Notes: generated by a model from the letters alone, not told the origin. DNA of 28,106 nucleotides from Candidatus Methylomirabilis limnetica (GCF_003044035.1 NZ_NVQC01000025.1:1-28106); one strand, 5' to 3'. Positions 12,326 to 27,429 are shown, counted from the first letter of the stretch. Translations and numbers: made by a program.

Positions 12326-12358
12326 GGCACACGGTGAAGCTTTAGGCGAGGGCGGAAG

Positions 12359-12640
12359 ATGGAACTGACGCGGCGGCAGGAGATCATGACGATGCTCCGG
12401 GAGGGCGAGTGGACGTTGGACGAGCTGGCCATGAACTTCGTGGTGTCAAAAAAGGTGATCATCGATGACCTCGAGCATATCGCCCGCTCTGTCCCAAGGC
12501 CCTCTCGCCTCCAGATCCATCCCCCAACCTGCGAGGTGTGCGGCTATCGCTTCAAGGACCGGGCGAAGTACAACGATCCTTCCCGGTGCCCAATGTGCAA
12601 AAACGAACACCTTCGCTCCCAACGATTCCAGATCGTCTGA
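12359..12640 (+). CDS. Small transcriptional regulator: HTH domain fused to a C-terminal Zn-ribbon (COG3357-like)
   Basis: 93 aa. The N-terminal winged-helix-like segment is RRQEIMTMLREGEWTLDELA. Two CxxC pairs (CEVCG, CPMCK) form the ribbon. Confidence 0.7.
   Translation: MELTRRQEIMTMLREGEWTLDELAMNFVVSKKVIIDDLEHIARSVPRPSRLQIHPPTCEVCGYRFKDRAKYNDPSRCPMCKNEHLRSQRFQIV
12469..12583 (+). repeat. 115-bp direct repeat, copy 1 (inside the HTH/Zn-ribbon gene)
   Basis: 113 of 115 nt are identical to 23783-23897 (counted by hand). The mismatches are tac/ttc and aac/aat. Confidence 0.95.
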
Positions 12641-12709
12641 TGAGATGTACCGTAACGTCGCTTTGAATCCACTGGGGGTTCATTCCCCGCGGCTTACCAC
12701 GAGTTCGTC

Positions 12710-12768
12710 ATACCGGCGGAAGCCGGTATCCAGAGTGACCCGACTGGATTCCGTGTCAAGCACGGAAT
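12710..12768. repeat. REP-like double hairpin (ATACCGGC-ggaa-GCCGGTAT; ATTCCGTG-tcaag-CACGGAAT)
   Basis: Perfect 8-bp stems read directly, downstream of the Zn-ribbon gene. It may also act as a terminator. Confidence 0.75.
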
Positions 12769-12807
12769 GACGGGCCAGAACAGAAGACGATACCCTGCAG
12801 CTTACTG

Positions 12808-12851
12808 CGGGGTAGTTCATTCAGCCTCGCAAGAAAGTAAGACTAAGGGAG
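12808..12851 (+). ncRNA. Candidate preQ1-I riboswitch in the queF leader
   Basis: A 5-bp P1 (CGGGG 12808-12812 / CCUCG 12825-12829) encloses a 12-nt loop starting UAGU. An A-rich tail follows, then ACUAAGGGAG. ACUA can pair with the loop UAGU to form a pseudoknot, and the tail overlaps the SD 10 nt before the ATG. The tail is longer than in textbook examples. Confidence 0.35.
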
Positions 12852-12861
12852 AACAGACGTC

Positions 12862-13218
12862 ATGTCCACGCAACCGTCAAAAGAGATCGAGATCTTTCCC
12901 AACCCTGAGCCTGGGCGCGATTACGAGATCCAGATGACCTGCCCTGAGTTTACCTGCCTCTGCCCGAAGACCGGCCAGCCTGACTTCGCGATCCTGACGC
13001 TCACCTATGTTCCTGACCAGTCGTGCATCGAGTTAAAATCGTTCAAACTCTACCTCTGGTCCTTCCGGAACGAGGGCCACTTTCATGAGGCGGTCACGAA
13101 CCGGATCCTGGATGACCTCGTCAAGGCTTGCCGGCCCCGCTTCATGAAGCTGGTCGCCGACTTCTACGTCCGCGGCGGTATCCACACCATCATTACCGTC
13201 ACGCATCAGCAGTCGTAG
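12862..13218 (+). CDS. queF: NADPH-dependent 7-cyano-7-deazaguanine (preQ0) reductase, type I
   Basis: 118 aa with the catalytic-Cys motif [14 protein letters not shown], the [11 protein letters not shown] block and the EAVTNRI helix, as in YkvM-type QueF. Confidence 0.9.
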
Positions 13219-13220
13219 GG

Positions 13221-13563
13221 ACGCGCTACGGTGGACGGGTAGGGGAGGATCTCTTCTATCCGGGCTACTTCAAGTATTCTAATCGCGACAACCTGGTGAC
13301 CGCCACCGGGCCGGGAGGCCGCCGATGATTGGAGGGCATACCGGGGCGGCTTACGGCTTGACTGGGAGCCTTCCACCCGCGATACGGTGACAGTTCAGGG
13401 CGACCTCTATAAGGGCGATTTCGGCCAGACGCTCACGCTTCCCTCCCTCCTCCCCCCCTTCTCGGGCAGCTCCGACAGCCTGGGCGATTTTGCGGGGGGC
13501 AACCTCCTCACACGCTTCAGGCATAGGGCGGCTGATCGCAGGGAGACCACCCTCCAGTTTTAC
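13221..13563 (+). pseudogene. Internal fragment of a TonB-dependent-receptor-like beta-barrel gene, frameshifted
   Basis: Two frames read RYGGRVGEDLFYPGYFKYSNRDNLV..ATG and DDWRAYRGGLRLDWEPSTRDTVTVQGDLYKG...GGNLLTRFRHR...TLQFY. This resembles a TBDR barrel segment from memory. A frameshift lies near 13298-13325. The fragment has no start or plug domain and stops at the IR-like sequence. Confidence 0.4.
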
Positions 13564-13597
13564 GGGTCTTCTCCCGAGTGAGTGGGTAAAAATCAGG
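13564..13597 (+). repeat. ISL3-like terminal sequence, copy 1 (GGGTCTTCTCCCGAGTGAGTGGGTAAAAATCAGG)
   Basis: About 26 of 33 nt match 23697-23730 in the same orientation. A GGCTCTTC-type start is what I recall for ISL3-family IRs. An ISL3-like transposase fragment lies 480 bp downstream. Confidence 0.45.
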
Positions 13598-13628
13598 TAA
13601 TAAATGGCACATGGCAGGAAAGTGTGGG

Positions 13629-14051
13629 TTACAGTTTGGACCTCCTCCCCCCTTGAGGGGGAGGATTGAGGTGGGGGGTCAAGACTTGTCGGATCTCCTC
13701 CACGACCGAAACGGGATGGCGTAACAGATCGTGGTCCCAAAACCGAACGACACGATATCCATGGCTCTGCAACCAGCCGGTCCGTTCCGTATCGTAGTTG
13801 AGCTGTGCCGCATGCTGCCCTCCATCCACTTCAACGATCAGTTTGCGTTCCAAACAGGCGAAATCCACAATGTACGGGCCCATCGGGTGCTGCCGCCGAA
13901 AACGATACCCGTCAATCTGCCGTAGCCGGATGCGACGCCACAGAGCCCTTTCGGCATCCGGAGGATCCTTCCTGAGAACGCGAGCCCTTCTGCTCACCCC
14001 CCCATCCTCACCTTCCCCCTCGCAGGGGGGAAGGGACACATCCACCAACAC
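13629..14051 (-). CDS. DUF559 (Vsr-like) endonuclease domain protein
   Basis: RARVLRKDPPDAERALWRRIR...GYRFRRQHPMGPYIVDFACLERKLIVEVDGGQH...RTGWLQSHGYRVVRFW is the DUF559 signature. Both ORF ends run into G/C hairpin repeats (13641-13678 and 13995-14039), so the true start may be internal. Confidence 0.8.
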   Translation of the reverse strand: MLVDVSLPPCEGEGEDGGVSRRARVLRKDPPDAERALWRRIRLRQIDGYRFRRQHPMGPYIVDFACLERKLIVEVDGGQHAAQLNYDTERTGWLQSHGYRVVRFWDHDLLRHPVSVVEEIRQVLTPHLNPPPQGGRRSKL

Positions 14052-14074: not shown

Positions 14075-14260
14075 TTGTCGAAGGTGGGCTCCGGACAAGG
14101 GTTTACTGGGTTTGAGGTGATGCGAAAAAGTGGTCTGTTCTACGAATACGAAAAAGGAGAAGGCTTGACCTTTTACACGAAGCGGTTTGCCTTCTTTGTG
14201 GGACGACGCTGCCGGGCCTCCACCCTGCAGGACGTGGCCAACAAGCTGCATCTGAACTGA
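14075..14260 (+). pseudogene. ISL3-family transposase N-terminal fragment
   Basis: TKRFAFFVGRRCRASTLQDVANKLHLN resembles the HTH_Tnp_ISL3 segment (TKRF..fv...c...t..dVA..l.l.W). It is truncated at both ends. Confidence 0.45.
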
Positions 14261-14262
14261 AA

Positions 14263-14484
14263 TGTCAGGGGACGATGCGGATCATCAGTGTCATCGAGGA
14301 CCCGTCGGTGATCCGGGACCTCCTCAATCATCTGGGACTCTGGCCGGCAAGCACAAGACCACCACCAAAAGCTCACGCCACACCAATCTGGGAATACGCC
14401 GCTTGCGATCTCCAACTTCAAACACACGCTGAGACTATCTACGGCGACCCCGACTACACCTGGGATGAAGACAGACAGCCATAA
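14263..14484 (+). pseudogene. IS91-family (Y2 rolling-circle) transposase C-terminal fragment, copy A
   Basis: KCQGTMRIISVIEDPSVIRDLLNHLGLW..RPPP...DPDYTWDED resembles the Zn-finger tail and extreme C-terminus of IS91-family transposases, as I recall them. It abuts the ISL3 fragment with no intervening start. Confidence 0.55.
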
Positions 14485-14596
14485 CGCATTGTGAAACAAA
14501 GGCGTGCAGGAGAGGTCTGTCTGTATTGTGCTCACAAATGCCCTCTTGCCGGGTGACTCGACCACAAGATGAGCTGATTTCTCAAAAGAGCGGTCC
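14290..14596 (+). repeat. ~305-bp direct repeat, copy A (IS91-like 3' coding end plus ~110 nt downstream)
   Basis: Aligns colinearly with 16256-16560, at roughly four-fifths identity by eye. Confidence 0.85.
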
Positions 14597-14657
14597 CCGA
14601 TCCACCTTCCTTACCCAACCGCATCGCCAGCCCCTGTTTTTCGATGCACAATATCTG

Positions 14658-14686
14658 TTGACAAGCAACAACAGCCTTCCTATACT
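14658..14686 (+). promoter_or_regulatory. Sigma70-type promoter, module copy A: TTGACA-17 nt-TATACT
   Basis: Hexamers and spacer were counted directly. It lies 144 nt upstream of the GGDEF-PilZ ATG and is part of the triplicated module 14618-14745. Confidence 0.6.
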
Positions 14687-14829
14687 TCCAGCCATCGAAA
14701 GCAATGCCTTATCAAAATAAATAAATCAAACAAACAAACAAACAATGTTACGCTCACCAGGCTGCCCGCTTGATAGGGGCGACCGCCACCCCTTTCGTTA
14801 AACGCGCACCCGCAGGAAGCTTAGTCTTT

Positions 14830-16014
14830 ATGGAGAATTTAACCGAGTTCGAAGCTTTCAAAGATCGCGTCATCTCGCTAGTGTCAGAGGACTCGCTCAA
14901 CCGGAAATTCCTCACTGAGCAGATCAACGAAATTTTCCTCCAGCGCGTCGATGGCTGCCTCTATTCCCGGCTTCTGGCGCTCTTCGTCCACTTGGACTTT
15001 GATGAAGCCGAGGCCCAGCGCCACTGGGTGAGCATACTCGATAATTACAACTACTTTCATGAGGTACTGCGGCGCAAGGTGGGGCTGCGGGTGGCGATGT
15101 TTGACTACTTTCTCAATAGTAATCAGCTCCTCCAGAACCCGATCCTCGTCGAAATCCATCTGTTCCAGCAGGCCACCTTTATGGCCATGCAAGACCACCT
15201 CACCAATCTCTTCAACCGCCGCTATTTCGATATCGCCCTGGAAAAGGAAATCAAGCGCTCCGCGCGCTGGCAAACAGATTTCTCGTTACTGATGATCGAC
15301 CTGGATAATTTCAAACAGGTCAACGACGTGCACGGCCACCTCTTCGGGGATAAGGTGCTCAAGGATCTCGCCGCAGTGCTGAAACAGCTCAGCCGGGAAG
15401 AAGATACCGTCTGCCGCTACGGGGGCGAAGAGTTTATCGTCTTGCTGCCGGGCACCACCGCGAGCGGCGCGCTTCACTACGGGGAGCGGGTGCGGGCCGC
15501 CTTGGCAGAAAACGATTTTTTGTATCGCCATCACATCACCTTCAGTGGCGGGATCGCCACCTTTCCCGCCGATGGCAGCGAGGCGGTGACCTTGCTCAAG
15601 GGTGCCGATGTCTCGCTTTATCAAGCCAAGTTTTCCGGAAAAGATTGCATCGTCAAAAGTTCCCAGGAACGTCGCCATGGCAAACGCCATCCCCAAACCT
15701 GGCAGATCAGCTACCAGCCGCTGGAGCAGACCTTCACCACCCCTGAGATTCACGAGGCTTACGCTCAGGACGTCTCACTCGGCGGCGTCAGATTTGAAAT
15801 GGCGCAAGTGTTTTCCCTGGACGACAAATTATTGCTCCACATCAAGCTCCCCGAGCTTCAGGGCGTCATCGTTGTCGGGAAGGTCGCCTGGATCCGAAAA
15901 CTGGAGTCGAACCGCTACGAATATGGCCTGCAGTTTCACGATCTGAAAGCCGAGCAGGTGGAAAATTTTAAAAAGGCTTTACCTGGAGGCGAAGCTTCCA
16001 TTCCAGATTTTTGA
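14830..16014 (+). CDS. Diguanylate cyclase (GGDEF) with intact I-site, fused to a C-terminal PilZ domain
   Basis: GGEEF at 15421-15435, preceded by RxxD (REED, from 15394). The guanine-specifying D is present (HLFGDKVL). The PilZ motifs RRHGKR (15670-15687) and DVSLGG (15769-15786) are both present. The start is taken at MENLTEF; the track start 14770 is a TTG. Confidence 0.9.
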   Translation: MENLTEFEAFKDRVISLVSEDSLNRKFLTEQINEIFLQRVDGCLYSRLLALFVHLDFDEAEAQRHWVSILDNYNYFHEVLRRKVGLRVAMFDYFLNSNQLLQNPILVEIHLFQQATFMAMQDHLTNLFNRRYFDIALEKEIKRSARWQTDFSLLMIDLDNFKQVNDVHGHLFGDKVLKDLAAVLKQLSREEDTVCRYGGEEFIVLLPGTTASGALHYGERVRAALAENDFLYRHHITFSGGIATFPADGSEAVTLLKGADVSLYQAKFSGKDCIVKSSQERRHGKRHPQTWQISYQPLEQTFTTPEIHEAYAQDVSLGGVRFEMAQVFSLDDKLLLHIKLPELQGVIVVGKVAWIRKLESNRYEYGLQFHDLKAEQVENFKKALPGGEASIPDF

Positions 16015-16129
16015 GCTACATGCGCGGCCAACAACCGCAGTGCGTCCTCTGCTTTTTTCTAACCACTTTTCTCATTGTATATTTAATTAACTGATGCGTT
16101 CATTTCGTTAAGGGTCGATACCCCGCGGC

Positions 16130-16449
16130 TTGCCGCGTCCGTGTGATCTCGATATGGCAGAAGGTGTACTCCTGGCTTCGTATGCAACTCATCCGTCTGC
16201 CCTGAAGGTATGCGGCCAGCGCCGTTGGATACCCATCAGCTTGCCGCGGGGAGGCGTCATCAAGGACCCGTCGGTGATCCGGGTTCTCCTCACTCCTCTG
16301 GGACTTTGGCTGGCAAGCGTAAGACCGCCACCACACGCTCACGCCCCGCCATCCGGGACTACACCGCTGTCGATCGAAAGCTTCACACGCATGTGGAGAC
16401 TCTCTACGGCGACCCCGACTACACCCGGGATGAAGACATGCAGTCGTGA
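16130..16449 (+). pseudogene. IS91-family transposase C-terminal fragment, copy B (disrupted)
   Basis: ..VCGQRRW..VIKDPSVIRVLLTPLGLWLASVRPPP is followed, in a shifted frame, by ETLYGDPDYTRDEDMQS. It is homologous to copy A at the nucleotide level. Confidence 0.5.
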
Positions 16450-16560
16450 CGCATCGTGAAACACAGGCGTGCAGGAGAGGCCTGTCTGCATGGCGCTCAT
16501 AAATGCCCTCTTACCGGGTGATTAGACCACAAGATGAGCTTATTACTTAAAAGAGCAGTC
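16256..16560 (+). repeat. ~305-bp direct repeat, copy B
   Basis: Colinear with 14290-14596. Confidence 0.85.
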
Positions 16561-16633
16561 ATATACATCTATCTTAGCAAAAATCATCGTAATATACTGC
16601 GATTAGATGTATAATATCATTGCACAATGATTA

Positions 16634-16662
16634 CTGATAGAAACAAACAGCCTTACTATACC
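16634..16662 (+). promoter_or_regulatory. Module copy B, promoter-like: CTGATA-17 nt-TATACC
   Basis: This is a degenerate version of copies A and C at the homologous position. A perfect TATAAT also occurs at 16610-16615. Confidence 0.35.
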
Positions 16663-16790
16663 CTAGCCAGCAAATGTAATACATTATCAATACACCACAA
16701 TCATAAAAATCAAATCAAAGGTCAGGTTAGCTTGAGAATGTCCGCTCAATAGGGGTAGAATAAAGACCCAGTTGAGAGGAGGCAAGAGGC

Positions 16791-17215
16791 ATGGTTGAAG
16801 GCAAGAAGCGAATGACGGCAACGCGGAAGCTGGAGGTATACATAGAGATGTGCTGGAAGAACGCCAACGCGGGAGAGATCCTGCGGCGGTATTGGCTCCA
16901 CCTGAACGACCTCCGGCGGATCGAGATGTTGGTGGAGCTGGCAGCCCTTACGGCGCTCAATGGGAGCCGCCGAAGGCCTGGGGCAGATCCCCAGGCGGAC
17001 AGAGAATATGCCTAACTCGCGGCAGAGCTGGCGCAAACGGAGAATACTCTGGCCGAGTTGACCGTGGAGTACACCCTGCGCAAAAAAAGCGAGCGCTCGG
17101 GTTGGAAGGGTTCCTCGATGGCATCTACCTCCATAGCGGAGTGCGGGAGGCGCTGATCATGGCGACCAAGGACGCCATCGCGGGCGGGTTGACCGAGCGG
17201 GCGGGTAGAGGTTAT
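16791..17215 (+). pseudogene. IS3-family OrfA-like (HTH) transposase remnant with internal stop and frameshift
   Basis: GEILRRYWLHLNDLRRIEMLVELAALTAL then stop, then AELAQTENTLAELTVEYTLRKK and GVREALIMATKDAIAGGLTERAG in other frames. It is GC-rich and ends exactly where the AT-rich DNA begins. Confidence 0.5.
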
Positions 17216-17239
17216 GCCTCTGAGCTTTTACAGGAGGAA

Positions 17240-19153
17240 ATGAAATTGACCGTCGATAACCCTCTATATAATAGTAGGGTAATAGATACCTATATAAAGT
17301 TTGTTAAACAAAAATATGATTACGTAAATATCAGTGAATTATTAAGCTACGCAAAGATTGAGTCATATCAGGTTATAGACGAAGGCCACTGGTTTACTCA
17401 GAAACAGATAGACCTGTTTTATGAAAGGCTGGAAAAGCTAACTAAAAATAAAAACATAGCAAGGGAAGCTGGAAGATACGCGGCATCATCCGAGTCCCTG
17501 GGAGTAATGAGACAGTATATGTTGGGGTTTGTTGGCCCTGCAAAAGCTTATCAACTAATAGGAAAATATGCCCCTAAATTGGCCAAATCGTCAATTTATG
17601 AATCAAAAATAAAAACCTCTAATGGAATTGAAATTACTGTCACGCCGCTAAAAGGCGTCCACGAAAAACAATTTCAATGTGATAACAGAATCGGGTATTT
17701 TGAAGCCATTGCCTTAGCATTTAACTATAGTCTCCCTGAAATCAGACATCCTGAATGTGTCTTCAAGGGTGGGAAAGTTTGTCATTATATTATTTCATGG
17801 AAACAATCGTATTTCTCCTTCTGTAAAAAAATCAGAAATTATGCTGCCCTGTTTTTTCTCGCCGTAAGTCTCGGTGCTTCTTTCATGTATTCTTTGTCTA
17901 CGCTGATAACAATTGTACCATTTTCTGTTTTTGTTGTTCTTTCATTAACTCTCTATGCTGCAATTATCGAAAAAAAGGAATTAAATACAGCCATAGACAA
18001 CCTCAAGGTTTCGTCCGATGAGCTCATGGAACAGGTTGACGTAAATTATAACAATTCCCTAATGCTAAGTGAAATTGCACTATCTCTTAGCAAACAAATG
18101 GACATCGATATCATTTTATCTAATGCTATGAAAGTCTTGGAGGTCCGCCTTTGTTATGATCGTGGCGTGATTCTTTTAACAAATGAAGACAAGTCCCTGT
18201 TATTATTCCGCGCAGGTTTTGGTTATACTCCCGAGCAATTAAACGTTTTGAAGAACACTCAGTTTCACTTAAATATGACTGAGTCAAAGGGGCTGTTTGT
18301 TGTCTCTTTTCGTGAAAAGAAACCATTTTTAATAAATGATTTACAAGAGATAGAGGCCCACCTTTCATCTCACAGCCTGGAATTTGCAAAAAAAATGGGG
18401 GCATTATCCTTTATCTGTTGTCCAATAATCTACGAAGGAGAGTCCCTGGGAATTCTTGCCGTAGACAATACAAAGACAAAAAAACCGTTGGTCCAGAGTG
18501 ATATTAGTTTGCTTATGGGCGTTGCGCCTGAAATTGGGATGAGCATTCATAACTGCTTACTCCTGGAAGCCAAAGAACGACAATTTGAATCGATAATACA
18601 CGTCTTAGCGGCTAGCATTGATGCTCGAGACCCACTGACAGCAGGTCATTCCGAAAAGGTTACAGAATACGCCATGGGAATATGTCACGAATTAGACATA
18701 CCGAAGGAAGACCGAGAAATCATTCGTATTGCCTCATCACTGCATGATTATGGCAAGATAGGTATTAAAGATTCTATCTTAATGAAACCAGGCAAACTGG
18801 ATCCAGAAGAGCGTAAGGCAATAGAAACTCATGCGGACAAAACCAAGAAAATATTGGAACGGGTACACTTTGAAGGCGTTTATGGGGAGATTCCTAATAT
18901 TGCGGGATCACACCATGAAAAAATTGATGGCAGTGGTTACCCAAAGGGACAGAAGGGAGAAGATATTCCTCTGGGTGCTAGGATAATTGGTGTAGCTGAC
19001 TTTTTCGAAGCTATAACAGCAAAACGTCATTACAGGGACCCGATGCCCATCGATGTAGCGTTTCAACTACTCAATGAGGAGGTAGGAAAAAGTTATGACA
19101 AAAATATTGTTGATGCTTTTATTAGATATTATAACGGGAGGTTAAAGACTTAA
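17240..19153 (+). CDS. Membrane-anchored sensor protein: unknown N-terminal domain, 2 TM helices, GAF, HD-GYP c-di-GMP phosphodiesterase
   Basis: HD..HDYGKIGI..HHEKIDGSGYPKG motifs. The GAF-like block is SEIALSL...GILAVDN. The TM pair is YAALFFLAVSLGASF / IVPFSVFVVLSLTLYAAII. The start is taken at the ATG after AGGAGG; TTG 17246 is an alternative. The track ORF start 16850 fuses the IS3 remnant in frame. Confidence 0.85.
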   Translation: MKLTVDNPLYNSRVIDTYIKFVKQKYDYVNISELLSYAKIESYQVIDEGHWFTQKQIDLFYERLEKLTKNKNIAREAGRYAASSESLGVMRQYMLGFVGPAKAYQLIGKYAPKLAKSSIYESKIKTSNGIEITVTPLKGVHEKQFQCDNRIGYFEAIALAFNYSLPEIRHPECVFKGGKVCHYIISWKQSYFSFCKKIRNYAALFFLAVSLGASFMYSLSTLITIVPFSVFVVLSLTLYAAIIEKKELNTAIDNLKVSSDELMEQVDVNYNNSLMLSEIALSLSKQMDIDIILSNAMKVLEVRLCYDRGVILLTNEDKSLLLFRAGFGYTPEQLNVLKNTQFHLNMTESKGLFVVSFREKKPFLINDLQEIEAHLSSHSLEFAKKMGALSFICCPIIYEGESLGILAVDNTKTKKPLVQSDISLLMGVAPEIGMSIHNCLLLEAKERQFESIIHVLAASIDARDPLTAGHSEKVTEYAMGICHELDIPKEDREIIRIASSLHDYGKIGIKDSILMKPGKLDPEERKAIETHADKTKKILERVHFEGVYGEIPNIAGSHHEKIDGSGYPKGQKGEDIPLGARIIGVADFFEAITAKRHYRDPMPIDVAFQLLNEEVGKSYDKNIVDAFIRYYNGRLKT

Positions 19154-19175
19154 TCAAATAGTTGACAGATTTAAA

Positions 19176-19976
19176 TCAAGCAACAGGCTTACGTCCCCTG
19201 CAACAAATTACTGGCGTGTAAGTAAATCTTCTCGGATCGATAAAAAATCTATTAAATTCCCCTAAAAACTCTTCGTATCCTCCATCATATTCTTCAAAAT
19301 TGAAATTTACCTTCTTTGAGATAACTTCAAACTTCTTTGTCCAGTTGTAGGCATCAATGTCGTTTAATTCCCCAAATATCAGGTGATGAGCGGTAACATC
19401 CATGTTTATATCCTGATAGCCAAGATCATACAGGAAAGAATAAAGTTTTCTCCCTACATACGGATCGAAGTCTGCATTTTCCTCTAAATATTTTATAACG
19501 GCAAAAATGGTTCTTTCCAGCCTTGGTGAAATGCCAAAATGGCTTAAACAATTATGGTCTAAATCAACCAGGCACAAAATACCACCTGGCTTTATAAGCT
19601 TAGTTACATTTTTAACGATGTCAAAACTGCTAGAAAGGTAATACTCTAAAGCAAAACGCATCCAGACAAAGTCAAACATCTCCTCACCGCCAAGGGACTT
19701 TCGTATATCTCTACGCCTAAATGTTATCCCTTTATCGTTATAGCGTTCTTTAGCATATTCAATTCTCTTTTCTGAACCATCGAATCCGATTGCCACTCCA
19801 CCAGGTTGAACTAATTTATGTAATATAGAAGTTACTTTTCCTGAACCACAGCACATATCAGCAACGTGCATACCTGGCTTAATACCAGCCCAAAGAGCTT
19901 GCTGCTCAACAACTCTACTATTTGTTTTAATATCCAGACGGAAAGCCTCTTCTTCATTTTCCATTAAGTATTCCAT
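19176..19976 (-). CDS. Class I SAM-dependent methyltransferase
   Basis: Motif I VADMCCGSGKV, an acidic loop GFDGSE, and motif IV-like LIKPGGILCLVD. The substrate cannot be inferred. Confidence 0.8.
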   Translation of the reverse strand: MEYLMENEEEAFRLDIKTNSRVVEQQALWAGIKPGMHVADMCCGSGKVTSILHKLVQPGGVAIGFDGSEKRIEYAKERYNDKGITFRRRDIRKSLGGEEMFDFVWMRFALEYYLSSSFDIVKNVTKLIKPGGILCLVDLDHNCLSHFGISPRLERTIFAVIKYLEENADFDPYVGRKLYSFLYDLGYQDINMDVTAHHLIFGELNDIDAYNWTKKFEVISKKVNFNFEEYDGGYEEFLGEFNRFFIDPRRFTYTPVICCRGRKPVA

Positions 19977-20109
19977 AACCCCCCATCCTTTATGCTCTCA
20001 GGTGGTTTAGATCGATACCGGAAATATTTTTGTGATTATATCACTACTTACCATCCCCTGCTTTTCGATGTACAATATCTATACAAAATAATACCATGTA
20101 AAATAACTA

Positions 20110-20138
20110 TTGACAACTAAAAACAGCCTTACTACACT
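20110..20138 (+). promoter_or_regulatory. Sigma70-type promoter, module copy C: TTGACA-17 nt-TACACT
   Basis: Counted directly. It lies ~60 nt upstream of the ATG at 20199 and is part of the conserved module 20046-20190. Confidence 0.55.
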
Positions 20139-20198
20139 TAAAGCCATCAAAAGCAATGCCTTATCAAATAAAACAATCAACCCTGATCAGAGGTGGCA

Positions 20199-22382
20199 AT
20201 GGATAAACTCCAAAGAATTGCTAAGCTTTCCTACTATACCGACCCAGATAAGGGACTGGAAGAAAGAAAGAAGATCTCCAGAAAACGCCTAAGAAACACC
20301 CTGAACCATATTAATTTTCAAACTGGCACAATACTTATAAATTTCAAACACCTAAAGTATGATACTGTCCTATCTCTTCAAGCCAATCCACAGCCATGTC
20401 TTGAAAATAGTTTGGAATGTTTGTGGATTGAACCAGCAGGACTAAAACAGAAATTGAGTTCTTACAAATTTCTAAATTTTCTACTTACAGATGATCTAGC
20501 GCTTATTCTTGTTGAAGCTGCCTTAAAGGAAATAAGTGAGGAAGGAATTAGCTTCAGCCTCCCTGAAATTTGTTACGAGCTTAGCTATCGCAAGGTAAGA
20601 AGGCATTTATGCAAGGGTATTCAGGTTGATCTCATTCAAAACAGTGTAATATTTTACGGAACTCTTTTGAACTTTAGCGCTGTCTCGTTCTGTATAGAAG
20701 TATCAACTGAGCCATCCCAACCATTTCATTGGGTTAATCCTGAAGATACGGTATATGTTACATTCAAAAATAAACAGGATATCCTGTATTCAGGAGAATG
20801 CAGGATAATCCGACAAACGTATGGCCAAAAAAAGAGCGTCTTTATAGTAGAACCTGTAAACGATCAGATACGCAGATTTAAGACAAAAGAGTTTCGAAGC
20901 TCTCGACACAAATTATCACCCTCACCAAATATTAACTTTATACATCCTTTTACTCAGAAACTTATCAACATGGAAGTTGAAGATCTGACAGGTTCTGGTT
21001 TTTCTGTTGAGGAAGACATAGACAATGCTGTGCTTTTGGTCGGAATGATTATCCCGGAACTGTACATAGAAATAGGCTATGATTTTAAAATCAGATGCAA
21101 GTCCCAGGTTGTTAATAGAAATGTTCATACAGCCAACGATTGCAAAACTCTCGCGAAATGTGGAATGACCGTTTTAGATATGGACATCCAAGAACAAGTA
21201 AGACTTTCGAGTTATTTACAGCAGGCGGAAAATAAAAAGGCCTTTGTTTGCAACAGGGTGGACATAGATGCGCTGTGGAAGTTCTTTTTCGAGACAGGCT
21301 TTATCTATCCTAAAAAATATGCTCTTATGTCCGCTGACAAGGAAAAGTTTAAAGCAACTTATGAGAAGCTTTATGTCGAAAATCCCCATATAGCCAGACA
21401 TTTCGTATGCCAAGATAAAGGTATAATTCAAGCGCATGTATCGATAATCCGTTTTTATGAAGAGACATGGCTACTTCACAACCATGCCTCCCTCAGATCA
21501 GGACATGGCAATACCGGACTTGTTGTGATGAGGCAGGTTGAACGTTATATAAACGATTTTCACCGTCTCTATTCAGCACACATGAATTTTGTCGGTTGTT
21601 ATTTCAGACCAGATAATAAGTTTCCTATGCGTGTGTTTGGAGGGTGTGCCAGAGAAATCAATAATCCAAAGGCATGTTCCGTTGATTCCTTTGTCTATTT
21701 CTGTTTTCCAAGAGCTGGCACACAACCTGATCTACCGGAAGCATTGACATTAACTAAAACCCAGCCCGAAGACCTTTTAGAGCTGGAAACTTTTTATGAA
21801 TATGAATCCGGAGGTCTGATGCTTCAAGCCCTGGATTTAACGCCGGAAATGATTGATAATGATAATCTCAGTAAAGAATTTAACAAGCTTGGTTTCAAAA
21901 GGGAAAGGATTCTTTTTTCTTTGAAGAAAAATGATGTTCTAAGGGCAGTTATAGCGGTAAATGTCTCTGATATCGGCTTGAACCTGTCTAACCTGACGAA
22001 TTGCTTCCACGTTATTATCCTGGACGCTAAAGATCTCCCCGTTAACATAATTTATATCTGCCTCTCCATGCTATCAAAATATTATGAGCAGCAGGATGAA
22101 ATTCCTGTTTTATTGTATCCCGTTAGCTATGCGCAAAGCCACTCCGTAGCCTATGAAAAAATACATACCCTATGGATGTTGAATACACAATATGGTGATC
22201 AATACTTCAAATATATGGAGAATTTATTTCACCATAGGCATGATGATGAAGAGGCTCAATGTTCTATAGCTTACCCCGATATGGACGATACGAGAAGGCG
22301 GAGTGAGAAGCATGGGAGGTCGTTGCGCATTATCACTAAGGATGGGATTGACTCCCAACATGAAAACGAAGACGGACGCTAA
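20199..22382 (+). CDS. Large cytoplasmic protein: tandem degenerate PilZ-like domains plus an unrecognised ~390-aa C-terminal region
   Basis: Three motif pairs are visible: RKVRR(H) then NFSAVS 23 aa later (20589-20687); RSSRH then DLTGSG 26 aa later (20892-20999); and an N-terminal RKRLR with EISEEG. No TM helices or catalytic motifs were recognised. GAGG lies 5 nt before ATG 20199; the track start is GTG 20193. Confidence 0.5.
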   Translation: MDKLQRIAKLSYYTDPDKGLEERKKISRKRLRNTLNHINFQTGTILINFKHLKYDTVLSLQANPQPCLENSLECLWIEPAGLKQKLSSYKFLNFLLTDDLALILVEAALKEISEEGISFSLPEICYELSYRKVRRHLCKGIQVDLIQNSVIFYGTLLNFSAVSFCIEVSTEPSQPFHWVNPEDTVYVTFKNKQDILYSGECRIIRQTYGQKKSVFIVEPVNDQIRRFKTKEFRSSRHKLSPSPNINFIHPFTQKLINMEVEDLTGSGFSVEEDIDNAVLLVGMIIPELYIEIGYDFKIRCKSQVVNRNVHTANDCKTLAKCGMTVLDMDIQEQVRLSSYLQQAENKKAFVCNRVDIDALWKFFFETGFIYPKKYALMSADKEKFKATYEKLYVENPHIARHFVCQDKGIIQAHVSIIRFYEETWLLHNHASLRSGHGNTGLVVMRQVERYINDFHRLYSAHMNFVGCYFRPDNKFPMRVFGGCAREINNPKACSVDSFVYFCFPRAGTQPDLPEALTLTKTQPEDLLELETFYEYESGGLMLQALDLTPEMIDNDNLSKEFNKLGFKRERILFSLKKNDVLRAVIAVNVSDIGLNLSNLTNCFHVIILDAKDLPVNIIYICLSMLSKYYEQQDEIPVLLYPVSYAQSHSVAYEKIHTLWMLNTQYGDQYFKYMENLFHHRHDDEEAQCSIAYPDMDDTRRRSEKHGRSLRIITKDGIDSQHENEDGR

Positions 22383-22398
22383 GAGAGGGCGTTTTACT

Positions 22399-23697
22399 AT
22401 GAATCAAAAAGTATTATGGAGAGGAATAGCTGTTTATGTACTTATATTCTTTGTCTTTTGTACTACCTCAAATGCTTATGGCTCTGGCTTTGCAATCTTT
22501 ACACAGGGTGCATCGGCTTTAGGTCAGGCAGATGCTGTAATTGCGCACGCAGATGACCCCTCGGCGATTTTCTTCAATCCCGCATTGATTAATAAACTCG
22601 AAGGAACACAAATAGAACTAGGAACAACCCTGCTCTTCCCTTCGCAGGAATTTAAAAGTGCTGCAACGGGAAATTCATTTCGAACAGAAAGTCAGGTGTT
22701 TTACCCACCCACAGTTTTTGTTACCCATAAGTTCAATGATAAGATCAGCGCGGGTTTGGGTGTCTTTAGTCCTTTCGGACTAGGGATTAACTGGGGTAAT
22801 AGCTGGGAAGGAAGATACATAGCAACCGACTCAGAAATGATAACTTTTAATATCAATCCCGTAGTTTCATACAAGGTAACACCTGATTTTACATTTGCTG
22901 CAGGGGTGGATTTCCTTCTCCTTGACACAACGTTAAAAAAGAGTCTAAACCTGTCGGGCTTGGCGAGCGCTGTCCCTAGTCTTGGCCTTCCTGCCGGCCT
23001 TCCGGACGGTAGACAAAAATTTAAGGGTGATGGACATGGTGTTGGATATAATTTTGGAATTCTGTATGACGTCAATAAAGACATTTCGTTCGGCGCCTCA
23101 TACAGAAGCGAAATCAAAGTGGACATTGATGGTGATTCCACCTTTACTCTTCCGAGCCCCTCACTCGGAGCTCTATTTCCAAATACTTCCGGCAATTCAC
23201 ATATTACGCTTCCACGAGTAGTCCAGGCTGGCGTCGCTTACAAAGGTTTTAATCGACTGACGCTAGAAACTGGTATGAGATGGGAAGGCTGGTCATCATT
23301 CAAAGAATTAAGGATCAACCTCGATAAACCTGTTTTAGGCAGTACCACGTCCATCACAGAAAAAAACTGGCATGATACGTACTCTGCAAATCTTGGGGTA
23401 AAATATCAACTGAATGACACGGTTGCATTGCTTGCCGGATACTTATATGGAGGAAATCCAGTACCTGATAAGACATTTGACCCTATTGTCCCAGATGCGA
23501 CTACACACCTTTTCACCGTTGGAACAAATGTAAAATATAAGAACATGAGAATTGACCTATCATATGGTTATCAATTGCTGGAGGGGAGGAGTAAAAACAA
23601 TACGGTTGCTGATCCATTGAATCCTTTCAACAACGCCAACGGAAGGTATAATACAGATATTCATCTGTTCGGTATCAGTCTAACGTATAAAATATAG
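22399..23697 (+). CDS. Outer-membrane transport protein, OmpP1/FadL/TodX family
   Basis: Signal peptide [15 protein letters not shown], then [37 protein letters not shown] (the FadL-family N-terminal hatch signature) and an alternating beta-strand pattern. The start is taken at MNQKVLW, with an RBS-like AAGAGAGGG (22381-22389) 9 nt upstream. It begins 17 nt after the previous stop. Confidence 0.85.
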
Positions 23698-23730
23698 GCT
23701 CTTCTCCCAAACGAGTGGGTAGATTTTCAG
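23697..23730 (+). repeat. ISL3-like terminal sequence, copy 2 (GGCTCTTCTCCCAAACGAGTGGGTAGATTTTCAG)
   Basis: It starts on the last base of the OMP TAG stop and marks the AT-rich/GC-rich boundary. It is homologous to 13564-13597 in the same orientation. Confidence 0.45.
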
Positions 23731-24704
23731 TCTTTTTAGATCTCCGGGAGCATGCACGTAAGGATTTTCAGGCGCAGGTACTCCTCGAGCATATCGCCCG
23801 CTCTGTCCCAAGGCCCTCTCGCCTCCAGATCCATCCCCCAACCTGCGAGGTGTGCGGCTATCGCTTCAAGGACCGGGCGAAGTTCAATGATCCTTCCTAC
23901 GAGGTCTGCCGCCGCCTGAAACAGGAGCCGCCGACCCGCTTGATACCGATCGTCTTGCTCACGGCTCTAGCGGCGGAAGAAGCCCGGATCCGAGGGATCG
24001 AGGCGGGGGCTGATGACTTCATCACAAAGCCGTTCAGTCGGGCGGAGTTGAAGGCCCGCGTCCGCTCGCTGCTCAGGCTCAAGAAGTTTACCGACGAGTT
24101 GGAGCACGCCGAGGCCATGTTGCTCGCGCTGGGCCGAACCGTAGAGGCAAAGGACCCGTACACCCAGGGACACTGCGAGCGACTGGCGGCCTACTCGGTC
24201 GCCCTTGGACGGAAGCTTGGCCTGCCACCGGAGGAGCTGACAGCCCTGGACAGAGGCGGGACCCTGCACGATCTGGGGAAGATTGGGATCCCGGATGCGA
24301 TTCTGTTGAAACCCAGCGGCCTCAGCGAGGTGGAGTGGGTGATCATGCGCGAGCATACGGTGATCGGCGAGCGAATCTGCCAGTCGCTACGATCATTACA
24401 GCGAGTTCTGCCGATCATCCGCCATCACCATGAGCGATGGGACGGGAGCGGTTACCCTGATGGCCTTGCGGGCGAGGCGATCCCTCTCACGGCGAGAATC
24501 CTGCAGGTCGCTAACATCTTCGATGCGCTGAGGTCCGCGCGACCATACAAGCCTGCCTGGTCGCTACAAACCGCGTGCGATACCCTGCGGGATGAGGTGG
24601 CACGCGGCTGGCGTGATCCAGGCGTGGCTGAGCCATTCATCGAGCTGGTCGAGCTGGGCGGGCTGTCGGAGGCCCCGGAGCCTGCCGGTGGAGCAGGGGT
24701 ATAA
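23715..24704 (+). CDS. Chimeric, N-terminally decapitated response regulator-HD-GYP (RpfG-like) protein
   Basis: Residues after the repeat junction start mid-receiver ([24 protein letters not shown]), so the phospho-acceptor Asp region is missing. The HD-GYP domain is intact ([22 protein letters not shown]). The 5' ~60 codons derive from the IR-like sequence plus the Zn-ribbon gene duplicate. Confidence 0.65.
23783..23897 (+). repeat. 115-bp direct repeat, copy 2
   Basis: 113 of 115 nt are identical to 12469-12583. Confidence 0.95.
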
Positions 24705-24827
24705 TAGCTATCCGGGACTGCAGTACTCGCAGGCGCATTTTCCAGGCCAACCCGGACAACGTGCGGTTGACATTCACTGCGACGGTGGATTATTCGAATG
24801 AATATCTAGTCAAGGCGGGGCAGCGGG

Positions 24828-25370
24828 ATGGGGCTGGACGGTGCGGCGAGTCTCAAGCTGCCTCGGGAGGAGGGCGTGGTGACGGCCGCCCTCGAACAGT
24901 TTCGGGTTCAGGCGGACGCGAAGGGTGTGGCGCTTGCGCTGCGGCTGGAACAGGCGCCGGACAGCCTGGTGGCTGACCCGCTCCGCTTTAAGCAGATTCT
25001 GCACAACCTCTTAGGCAACGCCGTGAAATTCACCCCAGCGGGCGGTTCCATTACTGTCACTGCGAAGATAGTTTCGCGTTCACAACCCGAAACCCTAGAC
25101 CCTCAACCCTATACCCTCGACCCCGGTGATTTCGTAGAAATTACCGTCTCGGATACCGGCATCGGGATTAAGGCTGAGGATCTGGGTCGGCTCTTCCAAG
25201 AGTTTACACGGTTAGACAGTTCCTTCGCAAAGCCGCAGCAGGGGACTGGCCTGGGTCTTGCCATGGCCAAACGCCTGGTCGATCTCCACGGAGGGTCCGT
25301 GACCGCCACCTCTCCCGGAGAAGGTCAGGGAAGCACCTTCACTGTCACCTTGCCGCTGCGGCCGTCGTGA
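24828..25370 (+). pseudogene. Histidine kinase C-terminal fragment (HATPase_c only; H-box/DHp missing)
   Basis: N-box HNLLGNAVKFT, G1 DTGIGI and G2 GTGLGLAMAK are present. The frame is closed by a TAG at 24807, and no phospho-His region lies upstream. A 42-nt heptamer repeat sits in frame at 25082-25123. Confidence 0.7.
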
Positions 25371-25464
25371 GGCCGACCGGCCCCGCCCCAGGTCTCTCCG
25401 ATGCTGCTTGACGTCGTCGCCCGCTTGATTTCTTGAGCCCACCCAACCCTTCCAGAAGCAGGAT

Positions 25465-25917: not shown

Positions 25918-26129
25918 GCACGGCGTTCCTTTGACAGGTAATCGGAAGAGTAGAGTCCGCGGCCCTTTCCCGCAAGAGCCTTTGTGTAACTTTTGGGTGT
26001 GGGCAACAGGATGGTAATCCCTCCTTTGACGACAACCACGAGTTCATCGCCCCCCTTGACCCCCATGGCCTCGCGCGCTTCTTTGGGAAGGACAATCTGG
26101 TTTTTTGTCGAGAGTTTGATAAAAGGCAT
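25911..26129 (-). CDS. vapB: AbrB/MazE/SpoVT-type antitoxin
   Basis: 72 aa. KNQIVLPKEAREAMGVKGGDELVVVV is a swapped-hairpin (SpoVT/AbrB) signature. Confidence 0.8.
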   Translation of the reverse strand: MPFIKLSTKNQIVLPKEAREAMGVKGGDELVVVVKGGITILLPTPKSYTKALAGKGRGLYSSDYLSKERRAW

Positions 26130-26385: not shown

Positions 26386-27143
<758 letters not shown>

Positions 27144-27428: not shown

Positions 27429-27429
27429 A

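Follow-up and report, generated by a model that had tools for sequence, protein, structure and literature searches.

How did a strongly AT-rich block of genes, most of them tied to cyclic di-guanosine monophosphate (c-di-GMP) signaling, come to lie in the GC-rich genome of Candidatus Methylomirabilis limnetica, a member of the NC10 bacteria, and what might these genes do together? The block lies within a stretch of 28,106 nucleotides (nt) (GCF_003044035.1; NZ_NVQC01000025.1:1-28106), the whole of which is referred to as the window. It was originally predicted to be a horizontally acquired, self-contained c-di-GMP circuit, comprised of a GGDEF-PilZ writer, an HD-GYP eraser and a putative 729-residue multi-PilZ-like reader, with a methyltransferase and a FadL-type channel as additional members, that might gate the import, export or modification of a hydrophobic compound at the outer membrane. 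The analysis presented here identifies positions ~14199-23696, some 9.5 kb, as a genuine horizontally acquired genomic island, and the core of this island as a four-gene cassette that is real, conserved across phyla and not previously described. The putative reader, termed protein X, is modelled as a fusion of PilZ receptor domains with an acyltransferase fold of the tandem-GNAT type, and the cassette probably forms a local c-di-GMP module that acts through an enzyme. The copy in the island core is barely ameliorated, most likely came from a Brocadiaceae-like donor and was then reshuffled by insertion sequences (IS). The genes of the island are the following:

14830..16014 (+), GGDEF-PilZ diguanylate cyclase, 394 amino acids (aa) (Pfam GGDEF, E = 6e-44, and PilZ, E = 9e-12; NCBIfam GGDEF)
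17240..19153 (+), predicted sensor phosphodiesterase, 637 aa, with H-NOX fold, transmembrane hairpin, GAF and HD-GYP domains (Pfam GAF and HD_5; AlphaFold2, Foldseek)
19176..19976 (-), predicted class I S-adenosylmethionine (SAM) methyltransferase, 266 aa (Pfam Methyltransf_31/25/11)
20199..22382 (+), protein X, 727 aa, ATG at 20199 (AlphaFold2/Foldseek; Pfam PilZ matches in the family)
22399..23697 (+), FadL/TodX-type outer-membrane channel, 432 aa, with signal peptide (Pfam Toluene_X, E = 4e-70); its stop codon is the right edge

The AT-rich block at 17216-23697 has a guanine-plus-cytosine (GC) fraction of 0.392, compared to 0.599 and 0.581 in the flanking DNA (1-14000 and 23900-28106, respectively). 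A sliding-window scan gives values of 0.55-0.65 up to ~14 kb, 0.47-0.59 at 14.3-17.2 kb and 0.35-0.46 at 17.25-23.7 kb, with a return to 0.63 by 23.75 kb, and the segment at 14.6-16.1 kb is of intermediate composition (0.53), as had been suspected. Individual 60-nt lines of the block, earlier counted at about 20% to about 50% GC, range over 0.20-0.70 (5th-95th percentile 0.31-0.51; mean 0.395), so that the count was accurate; the flank mean is 0.594 (block versus flanks, Mann-Whitney p = 7e-48). Codon usage upholds the deviation, with GC at third codon positions (GC3) of 0.32-0.38 in the four cassette genes, 0.62-0.81 in flank genes and 0.70 in the GGDEF-PilZ gene. The edges of the composition are sharp to within tens of bases and lie where the original prediction had drawn them, the GC fraction falling from 0.62 to 0.34 across 17215, ~25 nt ahead of the HD-GYP ATG (17240), and rising again at the FadL stop codon (23697), from 0.37 to 0.56.

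Such abrupt steps could reflect an assembly chimera, in which an AT-rich contig from elsewhere, such as a co-occurring anammox bacterium, had been fused by mistake to DNA of Methylomirabilis; these organisms do co-occur, and close to the right junction there is a 115-nt repeat in which three Logan contigs break. An exact-protein look-up of the 727-aa product led to contigs from seven independent assemblies, generated by metaSPAdes, MEGAHIT or Logan from different samples, namely ENA ERZ4201063 (27 kb, ~650x coverage) and ERZ27287891, and the Logan assemblies SRR24858484, SRR6684602, SRR6684603, ERR3856787 and SRR28254494. These match the window at 99.98-100% identity and together cross the junctions at 14.2, 17.2 and 23.7 kb, with ERZ4201063, ERZ27287891, SRR6684602, SRR6684603 and SRR24858484 each crossing at least one. 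The three Logan contigs end at 23812 within the 115-nt repeat, as is usual for assemblers at repeats, whereas two others (L003 and L005; loci from other assemblies are numbered with an L) pass through the repeat into GC-rich flank. The related islands L015, L017, L019 and L100 likewise sit in GC-rich DNA. A chimera is therefore hardly credible and was rejected, being effectively refuted by the independent assemblies across the junctions.

Comparison with related islands delimits the unit. Among the Methylomirabilis-type variants it spans 14199-23696 by homology, which begins at 14199 with L101 and L102, inside the remnant of an ISL3-type transposase gene that marks the left island edge, and stops exactly at 23696 with L015, L019 and L100. 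The flanks are native to NC10, since, at ≥90% identity, the flanking resistance-nodulation-division (RND) pump, QueF and UPF0182 proteins fall into clusters with those of M. oxygeniifera, M. tolerans and other NC10 bacteria. Deviant GC and GC3, IS remnants and flanks that differ in L015, L017, L100 and L101 are all features of a genomic island, and horizontal acquisition as first proposed is borne out by the spanned junctions, the native flanks and the differing neighbors in related genomes. No tRNA gene occurs in the whole window, so there is no such integration target, and no intact integrase or transposase is found among the window open reading frames (ORFs). Direct repeats were not found at the island ends, as the copies of the 115-nt repeat (12469/23783) miss the comparative ends at 14199 and 23696. 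An Rfam scan of the whole window, which included c-di-GMP riboswitches in conserved leaders, found no family.

The identity of protein X, initially taken as a 729-aa ORF and comprised of 727 aa from its real start at ATG 20199, was resolved by structure prediction and Foldseek alone, after profile and PDB sequence searches failed. The window copy has no match to Pfam (PilZ even at E ≤ 1) or NCBIfam, nor to PDB sequences at E ≤ 10, and its NCBI name is "pilus assembly protein PilZ". The family to which it belongs includes 1,459 clusters at E ≤ 1e-3, of ~680-700 aa and with 63% mean column identity across phyla, and Pfam PilZ (PF07238) matches 20 of 28 family members at about residues 256-340, corresponding to the second PilZ domain alone (best E = 1.9e-8). 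The AlphaFold2 model displays three β-barrels (~25-128, 140-220 and 244-345), one N-terminal and two of the PilZ type, with predicted local distance difference test (pLDDT) values of 76-88, followed by an α/β half at residues 350-680. The N-terminal half matches MrkH (5kec, E = 6e-9), PlzA (7mie), YcgR (5y6f), PA4397 (3kyf) and MotI (5vx6) in Foldseek, each with a probability of 1.00 and with E = 6e-9 to 3e-6. The C-terminal half matches tandem GNATs, namely VipF (6wqb, E = 2.9e-9), the glucosamine N-acetyltransferase GlmA (5kf1), MAB_4324 (7q3a) and N-myristoyltransferases, at E = 3e-9 to 1e-6, and also the tandem GNAT of the clavulanate pathway (2wpw) and HisAT (9en3), with alignments of 300-410 columns in each case. 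By these models, X joins a PilZ receptor to an acyltransferase fold of the tandem-GNAT type at residues ~350-680. The original view of a multi-PilZ protein thus stands for the N-terminal half, with its PilZ-type barrels, but not for the C-terminal half, whose tandem-GNAT fold makes X something other than a pure reader.

The conserved residues of X are distributed over both halves. The first PilZ domain bears R131xxxR135 (27 and 28 of 28 members, respectively) and D/N158-x-S-x-x-S163, in which the motif Gly is replaced with Ser in 26 of the 28. The second bears R233-x-x-R236, one residue short, together with R226 and K230, and a second motif D262-x-S/T264-x-x-G267 (25, 24 + 3 and 28 of 28), which reads DLTGSG in the window copy (262-267). 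In the C-terminal half, a segment of the form W424-x-x-H427-H-H-A430 ... R/K438-A-G440-L-V-V is conserved at the expected strand-loop-helix position and is no literal match to the acyl-CoA loop Q/R-x-x-G-x-G/A that follows strand β4. An exhaustive search with the GNAT half returned 740 representatives. Most of the best 150 are proteins of ~680-700 aa with the GNAT half at residues ~350-680, so that X represents a dedicated fusion family. In three longer proteins (P0111, 1209 aa; P0287, 1220 aa; P0275, 978 aa), the PilZ-tandem-GNAT unit lies at the C-terminus, and P0111 begins with Ser/Thr protein kinase domains, a sign that this module may be driven by other inputs as well. X is predicted from hydropathy to be soluble and cytoplasmic. 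A charged, low-confidence tail of ~45 aa (residues ~683-727; 22240-22382) is present in the window, L015 and L019, whereas canonical homologues of ~683 aa are without it, and this tail was probably created when X moved from HD-GYP to a position before FadL.

The sensor-GAF-HD-GYP protein was correctly recognized at the outset (17240-19153), and its sensor can now be specified as an H-NOX fold. Its C-terminal domain matches Pfam HD_5 (E = 1.8e-38), the translation reads '...LHDYGKIG...' and '...HHEKIDGSGYPKG...' at the HD and GYP motifs, and the protein is predicted to be a c-di-GMP phosphodiesterase. Hydropathy indicates a hydrophobic transmembrane hairpin of ~44 residues (201-244). The sensor domain (residues 1-190) adopts seven helices and a four-stranded sheet, as in H-NOX domains, in a confident AlphaFold2 model of residues 1-200 (20 homologues; pLDDT 88.6, predicted template modelling score (pTM) 0.84). 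All of the top 44 Foldseek matches are heme domains of H-NOX proteins or soluble guanylate cyclases (TM-score 0.63-0.76, root-mean-square deviation 3.3-4.8, ~190 residues), followed by Bet3 and the V4R protein 2oso (0.40-0.49). At the sequence level, Pfam PF12625 ('Arabinose_bd') is above threshold in one orthologue (31.5 bits) and weak in three, V4R is faint in one orthologue (E = 0.11), Pfam HNOB (PF07700) does not match the sensor, and a profile of the domain gave chance-level matches only against PDB sequences. A search for homologues of the sensor domain alone yielded 29 fragmentary proteins, enough for an alignment and uninformative on other domain contexts.

The pattern of conservation in this domain argues for a ligand other than the usual one. 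No conserved His is found at residues 84-116, as mapped by motif spacing rather than structural superposition, and the position ~13 residues before Pro100 is an Ile or Leu (residue 87); the only conserved His residues are H50 and H170. Pro100 is invariant, Tyr120 occurs in 19, Ser122 in 16 and Lys/Arg124 in 15 of the 20 homologues, the window copy having Ile124, and we take the spacing of Pro100 and Y120-x-S122-x-(K/R) to be that of the H-NOX Pro and YxSxR motif. A second conserved group, C147/H170/E172/C173/C181, presumably resembles the zinc site of V4R/XylR-type aromatic-sensing domains. With the proximal His absent and this Cys/His cluster conserved, the sensor ligand is probably neither heme nor nitric oxide (NO), and the domain is probably an H-NOX fold that binds something other than His-ligated heme. 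A canonical heme-binding H-NOX was downgraded to a minor rival, as the proximal His is absent.

The remaining genes agree with their first assignments. The methyltransferase (19176-19976, minus strand) has as its best solved relatives 3mgg, the juvenile-hormone-acid O-methyltransferases (JHAMT), over nearly the full length, and CouO/NovO, with NCBIfam matches all far below equivalog cut-offs, and is by these resemblances a class I small-molecule methyltransferase. FadL (22399-23697) matches nearly the whole Pfam Toluene_X profile (residues 52-463 of the 464-aa ORF; profile positions 2-420 of 421), has an N-terminal hydrophobic segment at residues 3-28, and scores 121.7 bits (E = 3e-35) against the NCBIfam FadL model, for which the equivalog cut-off is 585, making it a member of the family rather than a FadL orthologue. 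The GGDEF-PilZ fusion (14830-16014) features a GGEEF sequence with an RxxD I-site five residues upstream, and canonical PilZ RxxxR and DxSxxG motifs. Its close relatives (83-92%) are found on Methylomirabilis-type contigs only, where it accompanies the cassette in L017, L019, L100 and L102, and the next relatives, from Spirochaetota metagenome-assembled genomes (MAGs), reach at most 54%.

At least 545 species-representative genomes encode a relative of X; the cassette is common among anaerobes, anammox bacteria included, and most of the host taxa are Desulfobacterota. The best 80 relatives come from Brocadiaceae, Nitrospirota/Thermodesulfovibrionales, Desulfobacterota, Nitrospinaceae, Hippea and Sulfurimonas, and in most genomes the cassette lies among housekeeping genes. 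The order X, HD-GYP, methyltransferase (minus strand) and FadL is seen in the Brocadiaceae Ca. Wujingus californicus and Ca. Kuenenia stuttgartiensis, a Geobacteraceae MAG and several Nitrospirota, and Brocadia species have FadL upstream of X. Among 42 loci with enough flanking DNA, the methyltransferase and HD-GYP each occur near X in 34, FadL in 17 and a B12-binding radical SAM (B12-rSAM) protein in seven (L010 and L011 of Kuenenia, L024, L025, L027, L040 and L049). The methyltransferase is the most constant partner, usually <100 nt from the X/HD-GYP unit. The B12-rSAM gene is co-oriented with it, usually directly upstream, and is an optional fifth gene of the cassette, its presence hinting that the product is modified further, for instance by C-methylation. 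No other family recurs among the 42 loci beyond lineage synteny.

The set of X, HD-GYP, methyltransferase and FadL therefore passes the test of neighborhood conservation across phyla, with FadL as an accessory. In the searchable literature, no description of a cassette combining PilZ, HD-GYP, FadL and methyltransferase was found, in accord with the initial impression that the combination is not a described operon, and nothing specific was found on PilZ/HD-GYP proteins of c-di-GMP signaling in anammox bacteria or on horizontal transfer between Methylomirabilis and Brocadia. The idea of a self-contained circuit was upheld in part: the cargo is indeed devoted to c-di-GMP together with FadL, but the GGDEF-PilZ writer, with a GC3 (0.70) close to that of native genes and its next relatives in Spirochaetota at 54% or less, is not in the conserved cassette. 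It is never beside X in loci other than those of Methylomirabilis, and since it is absent from all of these the cassette is not self-contained outside this genus.

The simplest source of the island core is a Brocadiaceae-like donor. In Brocadiaceae, the GC fraction of the cassette is close to that of its surroundings (0.37 versus 0.37; 0.40 versus 0.42), whereas at Methylomirabilis-type loci a cassette of 0.38-0.40 sits in DNA of 0.55-0.63. L014, to which the window X and HD-GYP genes are 90% and 85.5% identical at the DNA level, has uniformly low GC and a hopanoid-gene context that matches that of Ca. Wujingus (Brocadiaceae), whose cassette GC3 (0.31-0.34) is similar to that of the window (0.32-0.38). 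Because of the matching GC there, the identity to L014 and the Wujingus-like GC3, recent transfer from a Brocadiaceae-like, anammox-related planctomycete is most likely. A cassette AT-richer than its flanks is also seen in L012 and L036 (Geobacteraceae; 0.45 versus 0.59 in one MAG), L064 and L094 (Ca. Brocadia carolinensis), and the cassette appears to have been transferred horizontally on repeated occasions, beyond Methylomirabilis. Within that genus, M. oxygeniifera is found in the RND-pump cluster (≥90%) and not in the cassette-protein clusters, and M. tolerans in the FadL cluster, among the matches listed; the island may be confined to some members of the genus.

At least three gene orders are found in Methylomirabilis. 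In L017 the canonical cassette lies directly 3' of GGDEF-PilZ; the window and L015 share the order HD-GYP, methyltransferase (minus strand), X, FadL; and L019 and L100 have GGDEF-PilZ and HD-GYP followed by methyltransferase, FadL and X, these last three on the minus strand. The breakpoints fall at an IS3-like remnant and at the repeat formed by an IS tail and a promoter-like element. Left flanks comprise QueF/DUF559, TatD or OEP, and right flanks a truncated REC-HD-GYP gene, a DDE-transposase-like ORF or adh_short/Lactamase_B. The ORFs are intact in all variants, with pairwise ratios of nonsynonymous to synonymous substitution (dN/dS) of 0.18-0.57. L019 (NZ_FZMP01000132.1, 10,192 bp) was submitted under the name of the archaeon 'Candidatus Methanoperedens nitroreducens Mnv1'. 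It encodes a bacterial FadL, and its island is 86-92% identical to that of the window, including GGDEF-PilZ and the IS3-like remnant. Almost certainly this contig belongs to Methylomirabilis and was mis-binned; its FadL bears an archaeal label in UniRef and NCBI. The label of L023, a 1.8-kb 'Methylovulum sp.' contig (83% identity in X), is similarly suspect.

The sequences between and around these genes include remnants of IS elements and repeats, as follows:

14075..14260 (+), remnant of an ISL3-type transposase helix-turn-helix (HTH) domain, 61-aa ORF (Pfam HTH_Tnp_ISL3, E = 7e-4, below curated cut-off)
14275..14595 (+), remnant of the C-terminal tail of a transposase, copy 1; IS fragment of ~300 nt, duplicated (repeats D1/D3)
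14644..14724 (+), promoter-like repeat, copy 1, TTGACA-17-TATACT, 5' of GGDEF-PilZ (D4/D7)
16256..16560 (+), transposase tail remnant, copy 2 (direct repeats D1/D3)
16621..16661 (+), promoter-like repeat, copy 2, degenerate, 5' of the IS3 remnant/HD-GYP unit (D7)
16733..17230 (+), GC-rich IS3 OrfA-like remnant that abuts the HD-GYP start (translation; similarity to L019)
20056..20176 (+), promoter-like repeat, copy 3, TTGACA-17-TACACT, 5' of X (D4/D7)
23783..23897 (+), 115-nt duplicate (98%) of a piece (12469-12583) of a PF0610-like gene (repeat D2)

Decayed IS fragments are thus present as initially described, but they are weakly identifiable (ISL3 HTH, IS91-like tail, IS3 OrfA-like). The two copies of the tail remnant (14290-14595 and 16256-16560) are 83-85% identical, and a weak tblastn match to the C-terminus of a Y2_Tnp/Zn_Tnp_IS91 transposase (43% over 37 aa, E = 7e-3) points tentatively to an IS91-family origin. 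The IS3-like remnant is 86% identical to positions 1243-1712 of L019, where a 211-aa ORF weakly matches HTH_Tnp_1, and its junction with HD-GYP is common to L015, L019, L100 and L102, with homology there beginning at 17009-17137. The best sigma-70-like site in the 14-24 kb region is at 14658, within copy 1 of the promoter-like repeat (11 of 12 hexamer positions), another lies at 20110 upstream of X (10 of 12), and L015 has a longer copy of the repeat 5' of X; the single sites are good, and the repeats may serve as promoters.

The 115-nt duplicates are 11.3 kb apart, and the PF0610-like source gene is intact at 12359-12640. The right copy is fused in frame to a native REC-HD-GYP gene (23715-24704) that is without the N-terminal half of its receiver, and the ORF at 24828-25370 is a histidine kinase cut down to its HATPase_c domain. 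The repeat as an island boundary, bracketing an 11.3-kb element that had integrated by recombination (12469/23783), was not favored, as related islands are homologous over 14199-23696 alone and the QueF and DUF559 genes enclosed by it are native to NC10; it is probably the scar of a local rearrangement outside the island. To the right of the island lie two PIN toxin/antitoxin pairs (25465-27113; MazE-like and PhdYeFM-like), and to the left a DUF559 endonuclease gene (13629-14051), surroundings that are typical of a variable, recombination-prone region. Elsewhere in the window, about ten tandem 7-nt units (AACCTTG/AACTTTG) at 8830-8899, just 5' of the RND efflux pump start (8912), could act as a slippage-prone regulatory tract. 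GC-rich palindromes resembling repetitive extragenic palindromic (REP) elements (CCCC..CTCACC..CCC / GGGGGGAAGGG) occur at gene ends or between genes (6627-6671, 12208-12252 and 13990-14034); the RND gene is overlapped by one of them at its 3' end, and the DUF559 gene by another at its start.

Taken together, the constant trio of HD-GYP, a PilZ-enzyme fusion and a methyltransferase argues for a local c-di-GMP module with an enzyme as its output. The membrane-anchored phosphodiesterase would receive a ligand by way of its cytoplasmic H-NOX-fold domain and/or GAF domain, and its HD-GYP domain would tune the local level of c-di-GMP. Binding of c-di-GMP to the PilZ barrels of X would then act as an allosteric switch of its tandem-GNAT acyltransferase. 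The divergently transcribed methyltransferase, joined in some genomes by the B12-rSAM protein, would modify the substrate or product of X, and FadL, where present, would carry this substrate or product, if hydrophobic, across the outer membrane. In Methylomirabilis, the linked GGDEF-PilZ protein, with an I-site and a PilZ domain of its own, would provide the c-di-GMP, and IS reshuffling after acquisition would have placed similar promoter-like sequences before the transcription units. A hydrophobic small-molecule substrate is suggested by FadL, the relatives of the methyltransferase, the rSAM protein and the non-heme relatives of the sensor fold. It is conceivable, if rather doubtful, that the sensor responds to NO or to a hydrophobic signal imported by FadL, and that the PilZ-gated enzyme and the methyltransferase, in some genomes with the B12-rSAM protein, make an acylated, methylated lipid-like molecule for control of the envelope or of aggregation, the whole serving as a behavioral switch exchanged between anammox Brocadiaceae and NC10 Methylomirabilis, which have the NO/nitrite niche in common. 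In all of this, the island, its horizontal acquisition, the conservation of the cassette, the folds and the motifs are shown, and the binding of c-di-GMP by X, its allosteric control, the chemistry, the substrate and the ligand of the sensor are inferred.

A number of observations weigh against parts of this interpretation. Measured against the bipartite motif of RxxxR with (D/N)xSxxG 20-30 residues further on, each PilZ domain of X has one canonical and one non-canonical half-motif, and the window copy, with T264 in place of the motif Ser, lies below the Pfam PilZ threshold. The model of X is moderately confident (pLDDT 70, pTM 0.49; pLDDT 45-90 in the GNAT half), the target-normalized TM-scores to GNATs are 0.4-0.54, Pfam GNAT/acetyltransferase models match none of the 28 members at E ≤ 1, and no NCBIfam GNAT model matches the C-terminal half. 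FadL is absent from 60% of cassettes, so the core needs no hydrophobic substrate. The donor and direction of transfer are read from composition and context and not from a rooted phylogeny. The count of promoter-like sites (24, versus 18.4 ± 3.5 in shuffles) is not above chance. Among the genes compared, X has the most relaxed dN/dS (0.36-0.57), and its decay may be starting in this lineage.

Other explanations account for portions of the same evidence. A protein substrate for X is a live alternative, in which X would be a c-di-GMP-regulated protein acetyltransferase akin to PixB or to the cAMP-regulated enzyme of mycobacteria, with targets in motility, aggregation or metabolism, and the methyltransferase and FadL would be loose neighbors. 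The precedent of PixB, structural matches that include the protein acetyltransferase VipF and N-myristoyltransferases, and a core cassette that does without FadL all fit this explanation, yet the linkage of the methyltransferase is tight (34 of 42 loci, usually <100 nt), its relatives are small-molecule O- and C-methyltransferases (JHAMT, CouO/NovO, and the fatty-acid enzyme Mtf2), FadL and B12-rSAM recur, and the substrates of GNATs are unreadable from sequence (PMC8316039); overall it seems unlikely, while retaining some weight. An NO-responsive module, in which the H-NOX-fold domain binds heme, senses NO (or O2) and ties the output to NO metabolism, would account for the 44 top structural matches over the full domain length and for the spacing of Pro100 and Y120-x-S122-x-(K/R), and would suit NO-metabolizing hosts such as Brocadiaceae and Methylomirabilis. 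It is made improbable by the lack of a conserved proximal His (Ile/Leu at 87 and none in the helix at 100-114), by the absence of an HNOB match where PF12625 and a faint V4R are found instead, by the Cys/His/Glu cluster, which is zinc-site-like, by the Ile of the window copy at the Lys/Arg position and by the predominance among host taxa of Desulfobacterota, which are no NO specialists, despite the established control of c-di-GMP enzymes by H-NOX proteins (PMC8846402).

The original prediction, in which a writer, an eraser and a reader form a circuit and the 727-aa multi-PilZ protein serves as an adaptor that directly gates FadL or an envelope process, draws on the adjacency of X and FadL, only 17 nt apart, on the PilZ-type barrels of X and on the linkage of GGDEF-PilZ in all Methylomirabilis-type variants. 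Yet an enzyme fold, conserved and rich in invariant residues, makes up half of X, the protein is predicted to be cytoplasmic and soluble while FadL resides in the outer membrane, 25 of 42 cassettes are without FadL and all those outside Methylomirabilis without GGDEF-PilZ, and the adjacency of X and FadL is derived, the canonical order having HD-GYP after X. Gating of the channel by c-di-GMP is not borne out and has become quite improbable; because X is a predicted PilZ and tandem-GNAT fusion, the predicted output is instead cytoplasmic acyl transfer. Still less probable is a recent, non-functional passenger heading for pseudogenization in an IS-ridden region. The surroundings do abound in truncated genes (REC-HD-GYP and the kinase), IS debris and toxin-antitoxin modules, X shows the relaxed dN/dS given above, and its window copy departs from a few highly conserved positions (e.g., H428N and Y404C). 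However, three different rearrangements have left all five ORFs intact in four or more diverged variants, dN/dS is below 1 for all genes, residues invariant in the family are all kept, by construction of the alignment (A1), and promoter-like elements are kept 5' of the transcription units. An anti-phage defence island with a cyclic-nucleotide signal was rejected and deserves next to no credence, as PADLOC gave only a match of the methyltransferase to mad2 (E = 5e-20; 143 of 492 positions) that reflects the generic SAM-binding fold, with none for X, HD-GYP, FadL or GGDEF-PilZ; toxin-antitoxin modules, the DUF559 endonuclease and IS debris do lie nearby, but in most genomes the cassette is found among housekeeping genes.

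A c-di-GMP module that acts through an enzyme would be of interest for a number of reasons. The outputs of c-di-GMP are mostly motility, exopolysaccharide and adhesins, PilZ-gated enzymes are few, and PixB, of unknown substrate, is the only PilZ-GNAT protein studied, so that the cassette is a candidate for a new c-di-GMP output. It links sensor, eraser, receptor-enzyme and accessory chemistry genetically across phyla, and makes the question of what such an acyltransferase produces approachable in cultivable Geobacter and Kuenenia. No architecture described so far fuses an H-NOX fold to HD-GYP, and the fusion may point to a ligand other than heme for the fold. The nearly un-ameliorated transfer (≤90% DNA identity) points to gene flow linking NC10 methanotrophs with planctomycetes of the anammox type, two guilds with anoxic nitrite/NO niches in common, and the comparison brings to light a bacterial contig mis-binned into a Methanoperedens assembly. 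The interest would rise if the reading of an NO or lipid signal were true.

Features of the cassette can be recognized in a variety of known systems. In the DSF (diffusible signal factor)-RpfC-RpfG system of Xanthomonas, a fatty-acid signal is relayed to RpfG, an HD-GYP enzyme. Burkholderia likewise pairs a fatty-acid signal, BDSF, with the phosphodiesterase system of RpfR (PMC8846402). These systems tie a lipid-like molecule to c-di-GMP degradation, as the cassette would with a hydrophobic ligand, suggested by FadL and the sensor fold; the cassette has no RpfF-type synthase, two-component relay or PAS sensor. The mycobacterial acetyltransferases Mt-PatA/Rv0998 and MSMEG_5458, which act on protein lysines and are regulated by cyclic adenosine monophosphate (cAMP), consist of a cyclic-nucleotide-binding domain fused to a GNAT domain. 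They share with X the design of a second-messenger receptor fused to a GNAT, with allosteric control that is proposed for X, and differ in their messenger, cAMP, in a receptor domain other than PilZ and in their single GNAT. HfsK of Caulobacter crescentus is a GNAT N-acetyltransferase and c-di-GMP effector that modifies the holdfast polysaccharide (PMC5362036). It resembles X in the c-di-GMP control, proposed for X, of a GNAT-family transferase and has an envelope-associated output, and it differs in having no PilZ domain, a single GNAT and another gene context.

The nearest precedent studied by experiment is PixB (MXAN_2604) from Myxococcus xanthus, a PilZ-PilZ-GNAT protein that binds c-di-GMP in vitro despite imperfect PilZ motifs, and whose transferase domain is essential and constitutes the functional output, acting on an unknown substrate (PMC8316039). 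Compared by published architecture, both proteins place two PilZ domains with imperfect motifs N-terminal to a transferase-fold domain within one polypeptide; X has an additional N-terminal barrel, RxxxR-type motifs ~100 residues apart (131-135 and 226-236, compared to R121 and R331 of PixB), and a tandem GNAT of ~330 aa that is matched by no Pfam GNAT model (0 of 28). Furthermore, the conserved partnership of X with HD-GYP, methyltransferase and FadL is not reported for pixB.

For the sensor, two groups of relatives offer a comparison. Domains of the V4R/XylR-DmpR and Bet3 types bind hydrophobic ligands, including aromatic compounds and palmitate. They share the fold of the sensor and have a zinc site that its Cys/Glu/His cluster resembles, and ligands of this kind would fit a FadL partner, but their Foldseek matches are weaker (TM-score 0.40-0.49, versus 0.63-0.76 to H-NOX) and the Pfam V4R match is faint. 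Stand-alone H-NOX proteins, for their part, are partners of c-di-GMP enzymes in Legionella (Hnox1/Lpg1057), Shewanella woodyi (H-NOX/SwDGC) and S. oneidensis (HnoX-HnoK-HnoB) (PMC8846402), and as in the cassette an H-NOX-fold sensor lies upstream of c-di-GMP turnover. In those systems the H-NOX domain is a separate partner protein, whereas here it is fused to a transmembrane hairpin, GAF and HD-GYP; because the known inputs are separate proteins (PMC8846402), this fusion of an H-NOX fold to an HD-GYP domain represents a new architecture.

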